IMG/VR virus record: IMGVR_UViG_2681813135_000005
Strand: one strand, 5' to 3'
Source of the DNA: a virus
Lineage: Duplodnaviria > Heunggongvirae > Uroviricota > Caudoviricetes
DNA length: 17,497 bases
Positions 2,686-16,795 of the stretch are shown in pieces. The translations under genes were made by a program, and so were the position numbers. The notes beneath the pieces are model-generated. The model was given only the letters and a program-made list of their open reading frames with translations. It had not been told where the DNA came from and did not search any database. The first letter of the stretch is position 1. Each line of letters opens with the position of its first letter.

Positions 2686-2703
2686 CGCAAAGTCTCCGCA
2701 ATT

Positions 2704-2723
2704 ACACGCAAGAAAAAACCGCC
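2704..2723 (-). terminator. Intrinsic terminator-like hairpin immediately upstream of xis (minus-strand sense)
   Basis: Top strand AAAAAA-CCGCC-ATCA-GGCGG. On the minus strand this is a GC-rich 5-bp stem with 4-nt loop followed by a run of six T. Confidence 0.5.
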
Positions 2724-3769: not shown

Positions 3770-3806
3770 TCGAGGTAATATAATTTACCTCGACTCGTTT
3801 GTTCTG
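3770..3806 (+). terminator. Putative intrinsic terminator downstream of the membrane-protein gene
   Basis: Inverted repeat TCGAGGTAA-TATAAT-TTACCTCGA followed by T-rich CTCGTTTGTTCTGG. Confidence 0.4.
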
Positions 3807-6740: not shown

Positions 6741-7031
6741 TTAGTGATTCAGGCCGTTACCGCGTCCGTCGAGAAAAACTTCTACGAGCAAATCACGGGT
6801 ATAAGTGCGCTCGATGCCGCGATGCAGATAAAGCCGTCCGCGTAAATTAGCTGATGCAGTCCAGGTACCATCTTTGTGTTTGACCAGCATTCCTGGCATG
6901 ACCGCACCGCGATTAACGGTCTGCGTTCCGTAATGTTGATGAACCATAAAAACTCCTGCCCGTAAGCTGGGCTGCTGAACATATAGAGACTTCTGCGCGT
7001 ATTCAGGCGGTGGATGGCCGCCGGTTGTCAT
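6741..7031 (-). CDS. Hypothetical early protein, first ORF of the leftward (pL-like) operon, in the kil/cIII position
   Basis: 96-aa reading from the ATG at 7031 ([20 protein letters not shown]...[15 protein letters not shown]) with GAGGCGG upstream. The ORF track extends it to a TTG at 7151 (136 aa); that extension carries an Arg-rich stretch RLRGVRGVKRTRERR. Function not recognised. Confidence 0.4.
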
Positions 7032-7151
7032 AACTAAGCCGCCTCGTTGAAGCGACTGAGGTATAAAGTGTTGTGTTGATTTCAGCTGGTCACACCGACG
7101 TTCACGCGTCCGTTTCACCCCTCGCACTCCCCGAAGCCTGCTGAAATTCAA

Positions 7152-7310
7152 ACTGCGGATCTAAGCGGTCATCGCAACGGTGAAACAGGTGGTTACCGTA
7201 TCGTTGTGTCGTTGCGATGAATTTAATTTAAAACTATAGTTGTTTTATCGTCAACAACAAAAGTTGTTTTGTCGGTTGTTTTAAATATAACTGGTTGTAT
7301 TTAGGATGGA
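7152..7310 (-). promoter_or_regulatory. Leftward early promoter (pL-like) with OL-like operator repeats and a structured 5' leader
   Basis: Minus-strand TTGACG (7254-7249), 17-nt spacer, TTAAAT (7231-7226). Repeated AACAAC/GTTGTT-containing sites (AAAACTATAGTTGTTTT, CAACAAAAGTTGTTTT, CGGTTGTTTT, CTGGTTGTATTT). 10-bp perfect inverted repeat CATCGCAACG...CGTTGCGATG (7170-7219) begins at the predicted transcript start. Confidence 0.5.
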
Positions 7311-7393: not shown

Positions 7394-7420
7394 AAAAGAA
7401 AACCCGGCGCGGTTGCCGGG
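7394..7420 (-). terminator. Intrinsic terminator after the immunity-region lipoprotein gene
   Basis: Top strand AAAAGAAAA-CCCGGC-GCGGTT-GCCGGG. On the minus strand this is a GC-rich stem followed by TTTTCTTTT, placed 9 nt after the lipoprotein stop codon. Confidence 0.7.
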
Positions 7421-7428
7421 TATGATTA

Positions 7429-7809
7429 TCAGTCAGCCCAACCTGATTTCGAGTTTATTTGGGTTTCTGACATTGTGTATTTCTTAATCGTGTCATCGTT
7501 AAAAAGAATAGTAAGTTCTTTTTTCGTACCGTTCGTTCCATTATGGAATAATCCATAGAATGGAATAAAAGTGGTGCCATTAACTTTTACTTTTGCAAAG
7601 GCGTACTTCCAGATCTCGTTTCCACTGTCAGTATATGAAACAGCATCAGGAGAACCAAAGTAAGATTTAACCTCATTCTTGGTTGTTTTACCTTCCTGAA
7701 GTTTAGACTGGACACTAATTTCAGTTTCATTTTTGAGTTGCTGGTTGCCTGAAGAAGCACACCCAGCCAATACAGATGCCATCATGGCAGCGATTAGGAT
7801 TTTTCTCAT
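7429..7809 (-). CDS. Phage-encoded lipoprotein (SmpA/OmlA/BamE-like motif) in the rexAB position
   Basis: 126-aa ORF with signal peptide and lipobox (MRKILIAAMMASVLAGC). Segment KNEVKSYFGSPDAVSYTDSGNEIWKY resembles the BamE/SmpA-OmlA fold motif. AT-rich. Lies between the repressor gene and OL with its own terminator. Confidence 0.75.
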   Translation of the reverse strand: MRKILIAAMMASVLAGCASSGNQQLKNETEISVQSKLQEGKTTKNEVKSYFGSPDAVSYTDSGNEIWKYAFAKVKVNGTTFIPFYGLFHNGTNGTKKELTILFNDDTIKKYTMSETQINSKSGWAD

Positions 7810-8038
7810 TTTATGTTTCCATTCATTATAATCAGAAACATCTTAACATAATGATTCGAAATAAAAACCGCTACGAGATAGGGGGACATTTTGCTGACAG
7901 TAGCAACAAATCTCAGCTAACAACGAGAATATTTACTGAAATATGCAAACAGATTTGGCGTTCTTATAGAGAATTTAGTGCAATATCTAATCCGAGTGGT
8001 ATAAACCTTAACCTTCGCTCCCTTAAGTCGTAGATAAA

Positions 8039-8728
8039 TTAACCATGCTTCCTGTACGTCTGCGGCATGCTTCCAATGACCTTACCGAATATGAACACCC
8101 GGTTCATCTCGTCTTTCTCGATCGGGTCCCACGGCGAGTAGCTCTTGTTATCAGAGATAACCAGCAGCTTATCCTTCATCATTTGAAGACGTTTTACATG
8201 GGCAGTGTCGTCGTACAGAAACGCATAGATGCCATCACCGTCGAAAGATTTAACAGTGATATCAACGAACAGCAGGTCACCTGGTTCGATCGTCCCTGAC
8301 ATGCTGTCACCTCGCACGTTAATGATGCGGATATTTTCCGCCTTCCTGCCATCGAACATGTGACGAGCATCGTCAAACGAGTACTCAACCGAGCGTAGAA
8401 CTTCTACAAACTCACGGTTGATTACACCTGGCCCGGCACTGACTTCTATATCAAGAACGTCAATTTTGAAGTATTTGGAATGGCTGACAGTTGATTGTAT
8501 TGGTTGCACTGTACTGTCTGACATATTTCCAACGCCAGAAGATAACCATTCTGCGCGCACACCCAAAGCGTTCGCGATCTCCACGATTTTAGTTGTTTGG
8601 TTAGCTTTCCCTGTTTCGATTTTCTGAATAGCAGCCTGGCTAACCCCGACCAAATCCCCAAGCGCCTTTTGTGTAAGGCCTCGCGCTAATCTGGCTTCTT
8701 TAAGTCTTTCTGAGAGTGTTGTTTTCAT
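8039..8728 (-). CDS. CI-type prophage repressor (N-terminal HTH, C-terminal LexA/S24-like autoproteolysis domain)
   Basis: 229-aa ORF. N-terminal HTH (LTQKALGDLVGVSQAAIQKIETGK); C-terminal S24-like region with NVRGDSMSGTIEPGDLLFVD and a downstream lysine (HVKRL). No SD before the ATG, consistent with a leaderless pRM-type transcript. Not lambda cI. Confidence 0.85.
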   Translation of the reverse strand: MKTTLSERLKEARLARGLTQKALGDLVGVSQAAIQKIETGKANQTTKIVEIANALGVRAEWLSSGVGNMSDSTVQPIQSTVSHSKYFKIDVLDIEVSAGPGVINREFVEVLRSVEYSFDDARHMFDGRKAENIRIINVRGDSMSGTIEPGDLLFVDITVKSFDGDGIYAFLYDDTAHVKRLQMMKDKLLVISDNKSYSPWDPIEKDEMNRVFIFGKVIGSMPQTYRKHG

Positions 8729-8832
8729 AGATCAAATGTACAACCAAGGTTTTATTTCATCAAACGAAAATGGTTGTTGACTAAAAACAACCATAGTTTT
8801 AATCTTTATTCGGATTAACCACGGAGGTTGTT
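8729..8832. promoter_or_regulatory. Divergent pRM/pR-like promoter region with OR-like operators
   Basis: Between divergent repressor and cro-like genes. Sites AAAATGGTTGTTGAC and AACAACCATAGTTTT (reverse complement AAAACTATGGTTGTT, one mismatch from the OL site AAAACTATAGTTGTT). Plus-strand TTGACT, 17-nt spacer, TTAATC, then GGAGG and the ATG at 8833. Confidence 0.55.
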
Positions 8833-9063
8833 ATGAACCCAGCAATCAAAACAGCGATCAATATCGTTGGTTCACAAAAGAAACTAGGCGATGCCTGCGA
8901 AGTTTCACAGCAGGCCGTCTATAAGTGGCTTCACAACAAAGCAAAGGTATCCCCTGAACATGTCGGCAGCATTGTTACGGCTACTGGTGGAGTTGTGAAG
9001 GCATACCAGATTCGCCCGGATCTTCCGAAGTTGTTTCCACACACCGAAAAGAACGCAGCTTAA
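8833..9063 (+). CDS. Cro-like HTH regulator (YdaS/Cro family)
   Basis: 76-aa ORF with SD GGAGG. HTH-like segment KKLGDACEVSQQAVYKWLHNK. Divergent from the repressor gene, in the cro position. Confidence 0.65.
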   Translation: MNPAIKTAINIVGSQKKLGDACEVSQQAVYKWLHNKAKVSPEHVGSIVTATGGVVKAYQIRPDLPKLFPHTEKNAA

Positions 9064-9132
9064 ATTTCCATTTCACGCTCTTTAACAATAAGCAATCAAC
9101 TTAACAGTCAATTCAAACTAAAGGAGTCAATT

Positions 9133-9672
9133 ATGCAACCACTTACATACCAACAGACTAGCGGATTTATTCCGACTGCGGTGATAAATCGTTCTCAAAC
9201 AAAACAAGCTCCAGGCCACGAAAAAATCCGTGATGCCGTCCGCGCCTGGTCGGCTGTAGATAATCAGGATGTCGTTGCCGCACTCATTGTGAATGAGTAT
9301 CGGGAGCAGGGCGACGGCACCATCGATTTCCCTGATGATGTCAGCCGTGCACGCCAGAAGCTGTTCCGCTTCCTCGATAACAAATTCGATTCTGAAAAAT
9401 ACCGAAATAACGTGCGTGAACTGACCCCGGCAATTCTGGCGGTACTACCGCTGGAATATCGCGGTTACCTGGTTGAGCAGGATAGCTTCATGACTCGGTT
9501 GGCTGAAATGGAAAAGGAACTCAGTGAGGCAAAACAGGCTGTCATTCTCAACGCACCACGCCACCAGAAACTGAAGGAAATGAGTGAAGGTATTGTGTCG
9601 ATGTTTCGTGTGGACCCGGATCTGGCTGGTCCATTAATGGCGATGGTGACCACCATGCTGGGGGCAATATGA
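9133..9672 (+). CDS. YdaT-like protein in the cII position
   Basis: 179-aa ORF with SD AAGGAG. Contains LTPAILAVLPLEYRGYL, which resembles what I recall of the Rac-prophage YdaT family. Sits between cro-like and O. Confidence 0.5.
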   Translation: MQPLTYQQTSGFIPTAVINRSQTKQAPGHEKIRDAVRAWSAVDNQDVVAALIVNEYREQGDGTIDFPDDVSRARQKLFRFLDNKFDSEKYRNNVRELTPAILAVLPLEYRGYLVEQDSFMTRLAEMEKELSEAKQAVILNAPRHQKLKEMSEGIVSMFRVDPDLAGPLMAMVTTMLGAI

Positions 9673-9758
9673 CAGGTTCAGAAATGGCGAAAGTCGGTCT
9701 GCGGGAACAGAACCGACTTTCAGGTGCAAATCGTAACACACTCATTGCGGGAGGAATT

Positions 9759-10688
9759 ATGGCAAACACTGCTGAGATATTCAATTTTCCAGTGCCGGAT
9801 GCGGCACAAAAGGAGCCGCGCGTGGCAGATCTCGATGATGGTTATACGCGCATTGCAAATGAGTTGCTGGAAGCTGTGATGCTGGCCGGATTAACACAGC
9901 ACCAGCTTCTGGTCTTCCTGGCTGTCATGCGCAAAACATATGGCTTTAATAAAAAACTGGATTGGGTGAGCAACGAGCAACTTTCCGAGTTGACCGGGAT
10001 ATTGCCGCACAAGTGTTCTGCTGCAAAAAGTGTTCTGGTAAAGCGTGGGATTTTTATTCAGAGCGGGCGGAATATCGGCATTAATAATGTGGTCAGTGAA
10101 TGGTCAACATTACCCGAATCAGGTAAGAAAAATAAAGTTTACCTGAAAGAGGTAAATTTACCTGAATCAGGTAAGAAAAGTTTACCCAAATCAGGTAAAG
10201 GCACTTACCCGAATCAGGTAAACACAAAATACAAACTAACAAAAGACAATATAAAACCTTTTTCGTCCGAGAATTCTGGCGAATCCTCTGACCAACCAGA
10301 AAACGATCTTCCTGTGGAGAAACCAGATGCTGCAATTCAGAGCGGCAGCAGGTGGGGGACAGCAGAAGACCTGACCGCCGCAGAGTGGATGTTTGACATG
10401 GTGAAGACCATCGCGCCATCAGCCAGAAAACCGAATTTTGCAGGGTGGGCTAACGATATCCGCCTGATGCGTGAACGTGACGGCCGTAACCACCGCGACA
10501 TGTGCGTGCTGTTCCGCTGGGCATGCCAGGACAACTTCTGGTCCGGTAACGTGCTAAGTCCGGCCAAACTCCGCGACAAGTGGACCCAACTCGAAATCAA
10601 CCGTAACAAGCAACAGGCTGGCGTGATAGCCGGAAAATCAAAACTCGACCTGACAAACACTGACTGGATTTACGGGGTGGATTTATGA
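9759..10688 (+). CDS. O: Replication initiator O (divergent N-terminal origin-binding domain, lambda-like C-terminal domain)
   Basis: Start at the ATG at 9759 (SD GGAGG at 9749-9753), giving MANTAEIFNFPVPDAAQKEPRVADLDDGYTRIANELLEAVMLAGLTQHQLLVFLAVMRKTYGFNKK..., which aligns with the lambda O N-terminus. The C-terminal half (...SSENSGESSDQPENDL...WMFDMVKTIAPSARKPNFAGWANDIRLMRERDG...) is lambda-like. Iterons lie inside the gene. The track's 9669 start is an unlikely extension. Confidence 0.9.
   Translation: MANTAEIFNFPVPDAAQKEPRVADLDDGYTRIANELLEAVMLAGLTQHQLLVFLAVMRKTYGFNKKLDWVSNEQLSELTGILPHKCSAAKSVLVKRGIFIQSGRNIGINNVVSEWSTLPESGKKNKVYLKEVNLPESGKKSLPKSGKGTYPNQVNTKYKLTKDNIKPFSSENSGESSDQPENDLPVEKPDAAIQSGSRWGTAEDLTAAEWMFDMVKTIAPSARKPNFAGWANDIRLMRERDGRNHRDMCVLFRWACQDNFWSGNVLSPAKLRDKWTQLEINRNKQQAGVIAGKSKLDLTNTDWIYGVDL
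10110..10262. repeat. Phage replication origin: five iterons plus AT-rich region inside O
   Basis: Iterons TTACCCGAATCAGGTAAG (10110), TTTACCTGAAAGAGGTAAA (10138), TTTACCTGAATCAGGTAAG (10157), TTTACCCAAATCAGGTAAA (10181), CTTACCCGAATCAGGTAAA (10204), each an inverted repeat TTACC...GGTAA. Followed by AT-rich CACAAAATACAAACTAACAAAAGACAATATAAAACC. Confidence 0.8.
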
Positions 10689-12040: not shown

Positions 12041-13459
12041 TTAGAAAATAATGTTTGCTATATCCGAGATAGCATTTAAAGAACCTCTGTGGTCACTTCC
12101 TGTTTTAGGTAAAATATAGGAATATCGAGGGTCTTCATTATATGTTAACTTCCAGTGTTTTCCATCGCTTGACGCACTGAAACCTAAGTCCTTTAAATTT
12201 CTTTGTGTTGCGCTATCCATGCTTCTGTAACCTGTTAAAGTCCTTTTAAGTAATTGGCGGCGACTCTCGGTTTCTTTATTGTATTCATTATTGGCAATTA
12301 GGGATGATAAGATATGGTAGCTTCTACCAAATTCATTTTTATTTTTTATGGCAGTTTTTAGTGCGTCAATAATTATATTTTTGATTTCTCCATCAAAAAA
12401 ATCAGTCTCTTCACCAGCATTAAGCACAATGCTTCCTTGGGCTGAAGCTTGTGATTGAAGAGTGCGTACTCTGTGCTCTAAAGAGGAGATCTTATGCTTA
12501 AGATCTTCTATTTGGTCATCTTTCGCAACATTATCGGCTTCGTAAAGCGCCATCAGTTCGCGTGTGTATTCTCCTCTTTCTTTGAGTGAGTTAATAGAGT
12601 CTTTCGTTTTTCTGGTTTGTATCTCACTCCATCCACTATCTGAGACAGGAGCCATTGTAGTCGTAGCTCTTACAACATCATCAAATAACTCATCTTCAAA
12701 TTCTTTTGCGGTTTTCTCACCACGGCGATAAAAACTGATATTTTGACCCCGTGGCCAATAGATACCAACAGCACCAGCATAGGCATTTTTAGCATTTGTC
12801 TCATTTTTTAGCTTAATAGAAAATAGTCTATTGCTAGGCTCAATTAATACATGTGCTAATCCGCATACCTTTCTTGCAAGGCGTTCTGGGATGATATTGT
12901 GAGCATGTTCATTAAAAAAATACTTGGAGCTAACGTATATTATTGGTAGTCTGTTGTCAGTTTCACCATTTATAACTTTAGCTGCTATATTTAAATGTTC
13001 ATCAGTATCATCTAAGGAATGAGGTTCGACTGACACCTTGAAAATATCATCAAGACCACCAGAAAATTTATCAATCAATCTCATAACAACTAATGGTTTC
13101 TTAGGTTGCGGGGCTAGATAAGCTGCATCTTGGCTTACAACGCTAGATTCCACCTGAATCCACATGGTATCAGTTTTGAGATTTTTATTAATTGAAATAT
13201 CTGTTACCCATTTGTGTGGCTCAGATATTTTCGAATACCTAAAACAGCCTAAACTAGTATCTTTGTTTTTATAAGTTATTATATCAATTCTTTCATTTTT
13301 AGACTCTATGAAGTACTCCTCGCTTTTATAATCACATACTAATTGTGCTGGAATAAAAGTTGTATGTGGTGAGTCGTTTACCCAAGAAAAACATTCATTA
13401 AAGATCTCAGCTAGAGATGTGGAGTTTGAAACATAAAAACCAGTTGAGAAATATTTCAT
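12041..13459 (-). CDS. Large hypothetical protein (472 aa) of unrecognised family: cargo gene at the ren/ninB junction, candidate phage-defence or abortive-infection factor
   Basis: Uninterrupted 472-codon ORF with SD AAGGAA 5 nt before the ATG at 13459. Markedly AT-rich compared with flanking ren and ninB-like genes and transcribed against them. Central predicted coiled-coil (DDQIEDLKHKISSLEHRVRTLQSQASAQ) between an N-terminal region of about 290 aa and a C-terminal region of about 130 aa. No family recognised by eye. Confidence 0.8.
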   Translation of the reverse strand: MKYFSTGFYVSNSTSLAEIFNECFSWVNDSPHTTFIPAQLVCDYKSEEYFIESKNERIDIITYKNKDTSLGCFRYSKISEPHKWVTDISINKNLKTDTMWIQVESSVVSQDAAYLAPQPKKPLVVMRLIDKFSGGLDDIFKVSVEPHSLDDTDEHLNIAAKVINGETDNRLPIIYVSSKYFFNEHAHNIIPERLARKVCGLAHVLIEPSNRLFSIKLKNETNAKNAYAGAVGIYWPRGQNISFYRRGEKTAKEFEDELFDDVVRATTTMAPVSDSGWSEIQTRKTKDSINSLKERGEYTRELMALYEADNVAKDDQIEDLKHKISSLEHRVRTLQSQASAQGSIVLNAGEETDFFDGEIKNIIIDALKTAIKNKNEFGRSYHILSSLIANNEYNKETESRRQLLKRTLTGYRSMDSATQRNLKDLGFSASSDGKHWKLTYNEDPRYSYILPKTGSDHRGSLNAISDIANIIF

Positions 13460-13494: not shown

Positions 13495-13734
13495 GGCTAT
13501 GATAATTGTTACCCTCCTTTGGATCTAGTGTTCATTTGACATAAGAACCTATTGATTCATCATAATCAACTCGCCATAATCATGTCATCGGAGCCTGAAC
13601 AACTCCGGTGACTTCTGCGCTTTGAGGGGACTCAAAGTGCAAACGACAATCAGAACACCTTTCAACCAGTCACAGATGCAGAAATGCACCTGCGATATCT
13701 TGCATCCAACGTTTGACCTCTGCGGAGGTGAAGC

Positions 13735-15318: not shown

Positions 15319-15349
15319 GGCCGGATAAGGCGTTCACGCCGCATCCGGC
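15319..15349. repeat. REP (repetitive extragenic palindromic) element
   Basis: GGCCGGATAAGGCGTTCACGCCGCATCCGGC matches the enterobacterial REP consensus in reverse orientation. Confidence 0.75.
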
Positions 15350-15366
15350 AAGAAGCTATAAGAAAA

Positions 15367-15395
15367 GGGCGGAGATCATCTCCGCCCTTTTTATT
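15367..15395 (+). terminator. Intrinsic terminator upstream of yidB (likely terminator of the preceding host gene, gyrB in E. coli K-12 order)
   Basis: GGGCGGAGAT-C-ATCTCCGCCC perfect stem followed by TTTTTATTT. Confidence 0.75.
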
Positions 15396-15469
15396 TCTGC
15401 AATCCGCAATTATCATCCCGCAAATCTATACTTTTTGGGTCAACACGTAACGCTTTACAGGTGATTATC

Positions 15470-15868
15470 ATGGGGCTTTTTGATGAAGTTGTCGGTGCCT
15501 TTCTGAAAGGCGATGCGGGGAAATATCAGGCTATTTTAAGTTGGGTTGAGGAGCAGGGCGGCATTCAGGTGCTGCTGGAAAAACTGCAAAGTGGCGGCTT
15601 AGGGGCCATTCTCTCAACCTGGCTGAGTAATCAACAGGGCAATCAATCGGTTAGTGGCGAGCAACTGGAATCGGCGCTCGGCACAAATGCGGTGTCCGAT
15701 CTTGGACAAAAACTTGGCGTGGATACCAGTACAGCTTCCAGTTTACTGGCAGAACAATTGCCGAAGATTATTGATGCGCTCTCACCGCAAGGTGAAGTGT
15801 CTCCACAAGCCAATAACGATCTGCTTTCCGCAGGCATGGAACTGCTGAAAGGGAAACTCTTCCGCTAA
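15470..15868 (+). CDS. yidB: YidB (DUF937 family protein)
   Basis: 132-aa product MGLFDEVVGAFLKGDAGKYQAILSWVEEQGGIQVLLEKLQSGGLGAILSTWLSN... from the ATG at 15470, recognised as E. coli YidB. The track's GTG at 15461 adds three residues. Confidence 0.85.
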   Translation: MGLFDEVVGAFLKGDAGKYQAILSWVEEQGGIQVLLEKLQSGGLGAILSTWLSNQQGNQSVSGEQLESALGTNAVSDLGQKLGVDTSTASSLLAEQLPKIIDALSPQGEVSPQANNDLLSAGMELLKGKLFR

Positions 15869-15982: not shown

Positions 15983-16795
15983 ATGGCTATCAAACTCATT
16001 GCTATCGATATGGATGGCACCCTTCTGCTACCCGATCACACCATTTCACCCGCCGTTAAAAATGCGATTGCCGCAGCTCGCGCCCGTGGCGTGAATGTCG
16101 TGCTAACGACGGGTCGCCCTTATGCAGGTGTTCACAATTACCTGAAAGAGCTGCATATGGAACTGCCGGGCGACTACTGCATTACTTATAACGGCGCGCT
16201 GGTACAGAAGGCCGCTGATGGTAGCACCGTGGCGCAAACCGCTCTCAGCTATGACGACTACCGTTTCCTGGAAAAACTCTCTCGCGAAGTCGGTTCTCAT
16301 TTCCACGCCCTGGACCGCACCACGCTGTACACCGCCAACCGTGATATCAGCTACTACACGGTGCATGAATCCTTCGTTGCCACAATTCCGCTGGTGTTCT
16401 GCGAAGCGGAGAAAATGGACCCCAATACCCAGTTCCTGAAAGTGATGATGATTGATGAACCCGCCATCCTCGACCAGGCTATCGCGCGTATTCCGCAGGA
16501 AGTGAAAGAGAAATATACCGTGCTGAAAAGTGCGCCGTACTTCCTCGAAATCCTCGATAAACGCGTTAACAAAGGTACGGGGGTGAAATCACTGGCCGAC
16601 GTGTTAGGTATTAAACCGGAAGAAATCATGGCGATTGGCGATCAGGAAAACGATATCGCAATGATTGAATATGCAGGCGTCGGTGTGGCGATGGATAACG
16701 CTATTCCTTCAGTGAAAGAAGTGGCGAACTTTGTCACCAAATCTAACCTTGAAGATGGCGTGGCGTTTGCTATTGAGAAGTATGTGCTGAATTAA
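15983..16795 (+). CDS. yidA: HAD-superfamily (Cof-type) sugar phosphatase YidA
   Basis: 270-aa ORF MAIKLIAIDMDGTLLLPDHTISPAVKNAIAAARARGVNVVLTTGRPYAGVHNYL... with HAD motif I DMDGTLL and a C-terminal GDQENDIAM motif. Recognised as E. coli YidA. Confidence 0.9.
   Translation: MAIKLIAIDMDGTLLLPDHTISPAVKNAIAAARARGVNVVLTTGRPYAGVHNYLKELHMELPGDYCITYNGALVQKAADGSTVAQTALSYDDYRFLEKLSREVGSHFHALDRTTLYTANRDISYYTVHESFVATIPLVFCEAEKMDPNTQFLKVMMIDEPAILDQAIARIPQEVKEKYTVLKSAPYFLEILDKRVNKGTGVKSLADVLGIKPEEIMAIGDQENDIAMIEYAGVGVAMDNAIPSVKEVANFVTKSNLEDGVAFAIEKYVLN

Follow-up and report, generated by a model that had tools for sequence, protein, structure and literature searches.

We analyzed a stretch of Caudoviricetes DNA of 17,497 nucleotides (IMG/VR record IMGVR_UViG_2681813135_000005; the whole stretch is referred to below as the window), with a focus on positions 8039–9672. 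This region holds a 229-aa open reading frame (ORF) on the minus strand (8039–8728) and, on the plus strand, ORFs of 76 aa (8833–9063) and 179 aa (9133–9672), followed by the genes O, P and ren. The first-pass annotation, made from the DNA letters alone, had described the immunity cassette formed by these three ORFs as unlike that of lambda: one codes for a CI-type repressor, one is Cro-like, and the one at the position of cII resembles the YdaT family, all set among lambda-like Red, P and ren genes. This description was borne out. Pfam, PHROGs and Foldseek agreed with it, and homology searches of all three proteins in Pfam and PHROGs gave no match to a lambda family. P and ren were 98% and 89% identical to those of a prophage that carries a 100% lambda CII (O, 65%), and the Red genes agreed in size and order with genes of a related E. 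coli prophage that are annotated as lambda exonuclease, Bet and Gam.

Repressor, Cro and predicted operators

The 229-aa protein is a cI repressor with an HTH_3 domain (5.4e-13) and a Peptidase_S24 domain (1.2e-18) in Pfam, and PHROGs labels it a CI-like repressor. Its translation carries a candidate Ala-Gly cleavage site (VSA/GPG), a serine (GDSM) and a lysine (VKRL). Judged from sequence motifs alone, the N-terminal helix-turn-helix (HTH), the Ala-Gly site and the Ser/Lys dyad fit a self-cleaving, SOS-inducible repressor of the LexA/CI type. The 76-aa protein is a Cro-like repressor of the P22-Cro/YdaS family. It matched YdaS_toxin (PF15943; 6.6e-17, 61.5 bits, cut-off 30), less strongly P22_Cro, the transcriptional repressor family phrog_35 and, in the PDB, the Xfaso-1 Cro protein (3bd1, 5.5e-3).

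cI and cro diverge across a 104-bp intergenic region with three 14-bp operator-like sites that have ACAACC half-sites. A pattern search together with reading of the sequence placed the right operator (OR) at 8740–8800, with OR3 (ACAACCAAGGTTTT) at 8740–8753, OR2 (ACAACCATTTTCGT) at 8764–8777 on the minus strand and OR1 (ACAACCATAGTTTT) at 8787–8800. In the window, the 14-mer pattern has exact copies only at the two sites from which it was drawn, and OL1 of the left operator is a copy with one mismatch. Two candidate promoters were read from the same interval: PR on the plus strand (TTGACT-17-TAATCT, −35 at 8777–8782, −10 at 8800–8805) and the repressor promoter PRM on the minus strand (TTGATG-17-TACATT, −35 at 8763–8758, −10 at 8740–8735). 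OR1 lies in the PR spacer, while OR2 abuts the PRM −35 and ends at the first base of the PR −35. Since the PRM −10 stands only about 6–7 nt before the cI ATG, the cI mRNA is predicted to be leaderless, as has been shown for lambda cI and for paaR2 of CP-933P (PMC8630535). The layout is mirrored on the left (7226–7298, minus strand), beyond a lipoprotein gene, by a candidate PL (TTGACG-17-TTAAAT, −35 at 7254–7249, −10 at 7231–7226) with OL1 (ACAACTATAGTTTT) at 7243–7230, OL2 (ACAACTTTTGTTGT) at 7267–7254 and OL3 (ACAACCAGTTATAT) at 7298–7285, PL having been read from the sequence and the operators found by the pattern search. These promoter and operator assignments are what we infer from the DNA.

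In such a switch, CI, with its 434-like HTH and its LexA-type self-cleaving domain, would bind the 14-bp operators of the ACAAC type, of which OR and OL have three each, and repress PR and PL; it would itself be made from the leaderless PRM transcript. RecA-stimulated self-cleavage of CI would induce the prophage, and for lytic growth Cro would occupy these operators as well.

The closest known counterpart of the DNA-binding half of CI is the 434 repressor, which the N-terminal domain matched in the PDB (4.5e-9). The operators likewise measure 14 bp and have the ends ACAA...TTGT/TTTT; for OL2, the agreement with the 434 consensus ACAA-N6-TTGT is exact. Yet, the recognition helix reads QQSIEQ in 434 but QAAIQK in the window, the operators differ in their inner bases, and the window Cro is of the P22/YdaS type rather than a 434 Cro. 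The difference between the recognition helices leads us to expect separate immunity, and the window phage is presumably heteroimmune to 434.

In gene order, the region resembles phage phi80 (X13065, JX871397). Both have OL, a foreign gene, cI, OR, cro (gene 30 in phi80), cII, a slot for an M3/oop-like RNA and the replication genes (15 and 14 in phi80). Differences are found in three places. The cI DNA-binding domain, the operators and cro of the window are unrelated to those of phi80, so that immunity differs; the replication genes of the window are of the lambda O/P type; and phi80 has an N gene and nut sites, whereas in the window a leader and kil come after PL, and N is missing.

A further comparison delimits the part that carries specificity. 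Phage 4A7 and its relatives share with the window the C-terminal domain of cI (87%) and cII (97%) but differ in the region of the cI DNA-binding helix, the operators and cro. The homology breakpoints lie at 8595, inside the HTH domain, and at 9132, exactly at the cII ATG, which delineates an immunity-specific cassette of about 8596–9131.

The 179-aa protein as the probable CII

The resemblance of the 179-aa protein (9133–9672, plus strand) to the YdaT family, also noted in the first-pass annotation, was confirmed by a Pfam match to YdaT_toxin (PF06254; 4.3e-30, 104.5 bits, cut-off 21, residues 67–154). In PHROGs, the protein matched phrog_163, 'CII-like transcriptional activator' (1.4e-66); Pfam gave no match to the lambda CII family. 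The first-pass annotation had named two findings that would speak against singling the protein out as a debated toxin: clear alignment with a characterized CII, and lack of toxicity. As to the alignment, the protein is 66% identical from end to end (residues 1–179) to the product of the gene annotated cII in phi80, which stands in the same gene order, and 50–73% identical to the cII proteins of mEp237, HK639, HK225 and CobraSix. cII of phi80 was defined genetically.

Sequence matches to the solved YdaT proteins were weak (8bt1 of CP-933P, 5.5e-4; 3c4r of Rac, 1.1e-3), and we turned to a predicted structure. An AlphaFold (AF2) monomer model built from 34 homologues had a predicted local distance difference test score of 77.8, with residues 1–25 below 50 and predicted to be disordered. 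In a Foldseek search with this model, only 8bt1 and 3c4r were matched, with a probability of 1.00, target-normalised template modelling scores of 0.65–0.67 and 26–27% identity. The model contains a five-helix, POU-like HTH domain at 29–113 (helices 29–43, 45–59, 70–82, 88–104 and 107–113), in which the recognition helix (70–82) reads SRARQKLFRFLD, its CP-933P counterpart being ARNTQKIFRWLD. It also contains the long oligomerisation helix (119–138) equivalent to alpha-6, and the protein is probably a tetramer. Besides the low identity, the modelled protein differs from the solved ones in its disordered N-terminal extension of about 25 residues and in two extra C-terminal helices (143–178). What is shared with CP-933P and Rac is the pair of Pfam families, the predicted fold and the position between a Cro-like gene and the replication genes; the repressor is not, the window having an S24 self-cleaving CI instead of RacR or PaaR2.

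Published work points to the function of such proteins. From gene context, Jobling (PMC5917428) argued that YdaS and YdaT are the equivalents of Cro and CII. Jurenas et al. (PMC8630535) found that YdaT of CP-933P is not toxic and activates a leftward promoter. Its tetramer was solved by Prolic-Kalinsek et al. (PMC9986795), who described two DNA-binding dimers and footprinted the operator TTGATT-N6-AATCAA. Finally, in the work of Wons et al. (PMC11879457), Rac YdaT was shown to bind ATGATT-N6-AATCAA, located at the start codon of its own gene, and to activate transcription to the left 29-fold. This work thus treats YdaT of Rac and CP-933P as a CII-like DNA-binding regulator, which argues against a toxin–antitoxin pair in the module analyzed here. 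The question of toxin versus CII-like regulator, which the first-pass annotation had raised, is largely answered by the literature, in favor of a CII-like transcription factor (PMC5917428, PMC8630535, PMC9986795, PMC11879457).

Could the protein nevertheless be a toxin, paired with the Cro-like protein as antitoxin or repressor, that kills or arrests the host once CI is lost? The database names suggest as much: Pfam has YdaS_toxin and YdaT_toxin, RefSeq uses 'toxin YdaT domain-containing protein', and expression of Rac YdaT causes filamentation and death (PMC11879457). These names, however, trace back to a computational toxin–antitoxin prediction for which evidence was lacking in a 2010 study (PMC5917428), and the death caused by Rac YdaT has been explained by misregulation of the host gene rcsA (PMC11879457). 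Lambda CII is likewise toxic when overproduced (PMC5917428), while the CP-933P protein is harmless, as mentioned above. In addition, the modelled fold, an HTH DNA-binding domain with an oligomerisation helix, would suit a transcription factor, deposited temperate phages have the gene in the order cro-cII-O, and in one of them, phi80, it bears the annotation cII, and PADLOC gave no match for the 179-aa protein. Taken together, these points make a toxin very improbable.

We conclude, with a probability of about 80%, that 8039–9672 makes up the full lambdoid immunity switch of an E. coli prophage, belonging to the phi80 class and having an immunity specificity of its own, and that the 179-aa protein is its CII, a YdaT-family HTH transcription factor and not a toxin. 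The protein labelled 'toxin YdaT' is thus most likely the CII-like lysogeny regulator of this phage. Two considerations temper this conclusion. Our literature search found no experiment on the 179-aa protein or on any phi80-type CII, and forced expression of the protein may cause some toxicity, as is the case for overexpressed Rac YdaT.

Candidate sites of CII action

Compared with lambda, the proposed role and the position of this CII are alike, but the two proteins have no sequence or family relationship, and the sites recognized by the two families are built differently: direct repeats (TTGC-N6-TTGC) for lambda CII, an inverted repeat for YdaT proteins. In lambda, CII activates from a site in the 5' part of the cII gene itself, and the transcript made leftward is antisense to cro. 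The switch is ordinary in kind; what may be added to the literature searched are two predicted YdaT-type sites, one inside cII and one in the nin region.

The first is a predicted promoter for repressor establishment (PRE) on the minus strand at 9155–9198, which we infer from conservation. It consists of a YdaT box at 9198–9181 (TTGAGAACGATTTATCAC), a 20-nt spacer and the −10 hexamer TAGTCT at 9160–9155, with a predicted start near 9148 reading leftward toward cro and cI. We compared 33 non-redundant phi80-type cII genes, taken from phages and from genomes of at least 10 enterobacterial genera. Synonymous-codon conservation was 0.75–0.84 in codons 1–12 and 0.58–0.65 in codons 13–22, the rest of the gene being mostly at 0.4–0.6. 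On the leftward strand, the conserved bases at 9160–9155 spell T-A-n-T-n-T, with the T at −12, the A at −11 and the T at −7 present in 33/33 genes and the base at −9 in 88%; one invariant base is a third codon position at which the second position and the amino acid vary. The core of the box, TGAT...TC, was also found in all 33 genes, and the box keeps a rare ATA isoleucine codon in 27 of them. A single copy of the composite motif was found in the window, where 0.17 would be expected. The disordered 25 N-terminal residues, which are missing from Rac and CP-933P YdaT, coincide with this DNA element.

The same arrangement was found outside the phi80 type. Box, 20 nt and TATGAT follow each other in Rac, and the Klebsiella phage ST405-OXA48phi1.2 has TAGCAT at the same distance from its box. 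In Tritos, a phage of the CP-933P type, the hexamer at 20 nt reads GTAGTT, and a fit is reached only by allowing a 21-nt spacer (TAGTTT). CP-933P, Rac and the window would share the operator consensus TTGATT-N6-AATCAA and, on the leftward strand, a box, a spacer of 20–21 nt and TAnnnT. They differ in that a strong box overlaps the ydaT start codon in CP-933P/Rac-type phages, while the window has a degenerate box inside the coding sequence. The centre of the box, at −41.5, is where a class II activator would sit. After infection, CII would bind this weak box within its own first 22 codons and activate the leftward promoter as a class II activator, and the resulting transcript would run antisense through cro into cI and establish repression.

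Three points weigh against a PRE at this place. The in-gene box is weak in the window (8 of 12 positions). The 5' conservation could stem in part from a constraint on translation initiation or from use as a recombination junction, the window/4A7 breakpoint lying exactly at the ATG. Lastly, the published Rac promoter activated by YdaT is 190 bp from the box (PMC11879457), and that of CP-933P is upstream of the box. One may ask whether CII acts at a distant promoter or by looping, as in the Rac model, which has a reverse promoter within ydaS and the box some 190 bp upstream of it, so that the 5' conservation would reflect translation or recombination. This would agree with the assignment of activation to PracR4 (PMC11879457), with a tetramer that has two DNA-binding dimers (PMC9986795), with a weak antisense promoter-like site detected inside cro by a promoter scan (8999–8971) and with half-site repeats at the cro start (8841–8862). 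PracR4, however, is a BProm prediction; the part of the article consulted gives no mapped YdaT-induced start, and the reporter also held box-adjacent sequence (PMC11879457). The cro-start repeats are missing from 4A7 in spite of its nearly identical CII. Furthermore, the invariant bases of cII are the three key positions of a −10 hexamer, at a fixed distance of 20 nt from the box across divergent subfamilies. Action from a distance thus seems unlikely to us, and the promoter abutting the box is the reading that we tentatively retain.

Other candidate sites near the switch were considered. A direct repeat, TTGAYY-N6-TTGATT (8844–8861 and 9094–9111, minus strand), was rejected as a lambda-style CII site because it is missing in 4A7, whose CII is 97% identical; a third exact copy is found in a host yidB-like gene. 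No TTGC-N6-TTGC site was found near cro or cII. The sole exact copy in the window (TTGCGTGTAATTGC, 2698–2711, minus strand) lies 12 nt upstream of the ATG of a lambda-type xis (xis/int) and is what we take to be lambda's PI site for CII. We do not expect the resident phi80/YdaT-type CII to act there, and found no promoter motif of the YdaT type near int or xis. In the 4A7-type locus L036 and about 29 others, a near-perfect YdaT box (TTGATAATGACAAATCAA, position 2237) overlaps the cro start, 264 nt upstream of cII; it may be the counterpart of the footprint of YdaT that has been reported over the start of ydaS in Rac. At that place, the window has only AATCAA/GATCAA half-sites (8844–8860).

The second predicted site is a perfect YdaT operator (TTGATTCATCATAATCAA) in the nin region at 13552–13569 on the plus strand, 4.4 kb away, an arrangement unlike that of CP-933P and Rac. 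It is the sole exact copy of TTGATT-N6-AATCAA in the 17.5-kb window, where about 0.001 would be expected by arithmetic. The operator covers the −35 and the spacer of a promoter, TTGATT-17-CATAAT (−10 at 13575–13580), that precedes a 33-codon ylcH-like frame and ybcN; the same hexamers are annotated as a putative promoter in the phage 82 record X92588. Homologous nin boxes keep the half-sites while the spacer varies (TCCAAT in PhiR26_1, TGCGAT in an E. coli prophage, TTGGGA in DLP12 of K-12). At the homologous nin-region promoter, phi80 has the palindrome TTGATA-N6-TATCAA, the only site within 2 mismatches in its genome.

We then asked with which type of cII the box occurs. Among box-bearing IMG/VR loci in which a cII was detected upstream, 27 had a YdaT-type cII (49–100% identity, with varied replication modules) and 3 a lambda-type cII. 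In the reverse test, the box was found in 45 of 54 YdaT-cII loci, or 45 of the 52 that have ybcN, always 183 bp upstream of that gene, and in 0/46 lambda-cII loci, only one of which has ybcN. Because the box is tied to ybcN, a gene nearly missing from lambda-cII loci, its association with the type of cII is confounded by phage lineage and is not decisive. In our analysis, the strongest argument for the operator is its exact identity to the experimentally footprinted operator of CP-933P.

The confounding by ybcN also counts against a CII operator at this place, and opens a different explanation, in which the palindrome is the operator of another host or nin regulator, or plainly a part of the ylcH/ybcN promoter, its likeness to a YdaT site being due to coincidence and linkage. 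The box indeed travels with ybcN, three box-bearing loci carry a lambda-type cII, the box is present in DLP12, where the stretch read has no annotated cII, and one lambda-cII locus and one YdaT-cII locus have the same degenerate variant. Coincidence and linkage do not, however, easily account for a 12/12 match to the footprinted operator with equal spacing, for conserved half-sites with free spacers across more than 20 box variants, or for the uniqueness of the phi80 site within 2 mismatches. The recognition helices are also similar (SRARQKLFRF in the window, ARNTQKIFRW in CP-933P), and the linkage of box and cII persists across cII genes only 49–70% identical and across different replication modules. 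We give this explanation a substantial minority share, roughly a third of the weight, and lean, by a modest margin over even odds, toward binding of CII to the 13552–13569 box.

If CII does bind there, the centre of the box at −26.5 predicts repression. CII would then repress the ylcH/ybcN promoter and damp rightward expression toward Q, which would parallel the PaQ promoter of lambda in outcome. The biological role of the box, possibly to delay nin/Q expression, is speculative. Our literature search found no paper linking YdaT to ybcN.

The box of DLP12 (TTGATTTTGGGAAATCAA, followed by CATAAT) lies upstream of ylcH-ybcN at 3785–3802 of locus L409, that is, at about 572284 of E. coli K-12 (NC_000913.3). 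As DLP12 keeps a perfect box and Rac YdaT binds this consensus in vitro, Rac YdaT is predicted to regulate the DLP12 nin genes. Three papers on Rac, searched for DLP12 nin genes that respond to YdaT, do not mention such genes.

These elements may be combined into a tentative scheme, to which we give slightly less than even chances. YdaT-family CIIs would be class II activators at a box-abutting promoter (box, 20 nt, TAnnnT) instead of at the promoters published for Rac and CP-933P; the phi80-type proteins would also use a second, high-affinity operator in the nin region, damping Q; and Rac YdaT would regulate ylcH-ybcN-rusA-quuD of DLP12. If this is true, the whole YdaT family has a simple promoter architecture, and the published site of activation in Rac and CP-933P has to be revised. 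A second CII target would also tie the lysogeny decision to the late-gene pathway, as a protein–operator equivalent of lambda PaQ, and there would be cross-talk between two cryptic prophages of K-12, Rac and DLP12.

Candidate small RNA, relatives and neighbouring genes

The lambda-like O starts at 9759 (MANTAEIF), although its 339-aa frame begins 30 codons upstream, at 9669, and overlaps the cII stop. The extension (9669–9758) is probably not translated. It covers a candidate M3/oop-like RNA (about 9747 to 9688, minus strand), whose promoter, TTGAAT-17-CATAAT at 9784–9756, was found by a promoter scan and overlaps the O start codon with its −10. The candidate has moderate support from the sequence: it aligns in position with the annotated M3 RNAs of phi80 and HK639 and has a hairpin, without a clear U-run after it. 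A search with Rfam gave no match to an oop, nut or put family in the window.

On the left side (6741–7298, minus strand), an N gene is missing; downstream of PL come an untranslated leader of about 275–280 nt and then the 68-aa Kil, phrog_294 matching residues 60–136 of a 136-aa ORF. The leader (275 nt) folds no better than shuffled sequences (z = −0.7), and a put-like RNA is thus unsupported. phi80, HK639 and 4A7 have a GC hairpin at the cro stop, which we guess could be a nutR element and which is missing from the cro-cII spacer of the window.

The temperate phage PhiR26_1 shares positions 7400–9700 at 99.9% identity. The cI-cro part is common to five further deposited phages (96–97% identity), and several of these phages are listed with a laboratory E. 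coli host. Part of the region was matched in 2228 of 5426 complete E. coli genomes (~40%), and the full cassette in 58. RefSeq labels the 179-aa gene a toxin; to file it under CII, in a switch of the phi80 class, avoids false toxin–antitoxin calls.

Homology to prophages ends at about 15273, just past rusA/ylcG-type genes. Beyond this point lie a repetitive extragenic palindromic (REP)-like element (naRNA4, 15319–15393; 47 bits, below the gathering score), a YidB-like gene (15461–15868) and a HAD hydrolase gene (15983–16795). As Q, the lysis genes and the structural genes are missing from the window, the prophage looks truncated or rearranged.

Between ren and ninB, a 472-aa ORF (12041–13459, minus strand) has a G+C content of 0.33–0.38. 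It had no Pfam match and a weak PADLOC match to HEC-07 (1e-9). PhiR26_1 carries 'PD-lambda-1' in the same slot, and the ORF is therefore a likely anti-phage defence gene. Finally, a 126-aa lipoprotein gene (7429–7809, minus strand) with its own terminator (7421–7402) lies between OL and cI, in the slot of lambda rexAB and of phi80 gene 40A. Its product has a weak BamE match, is named 'BamE' or 'SEN1984 family lipoprotein' in RefSeq and could act in lysogenic conversion or exclusion.

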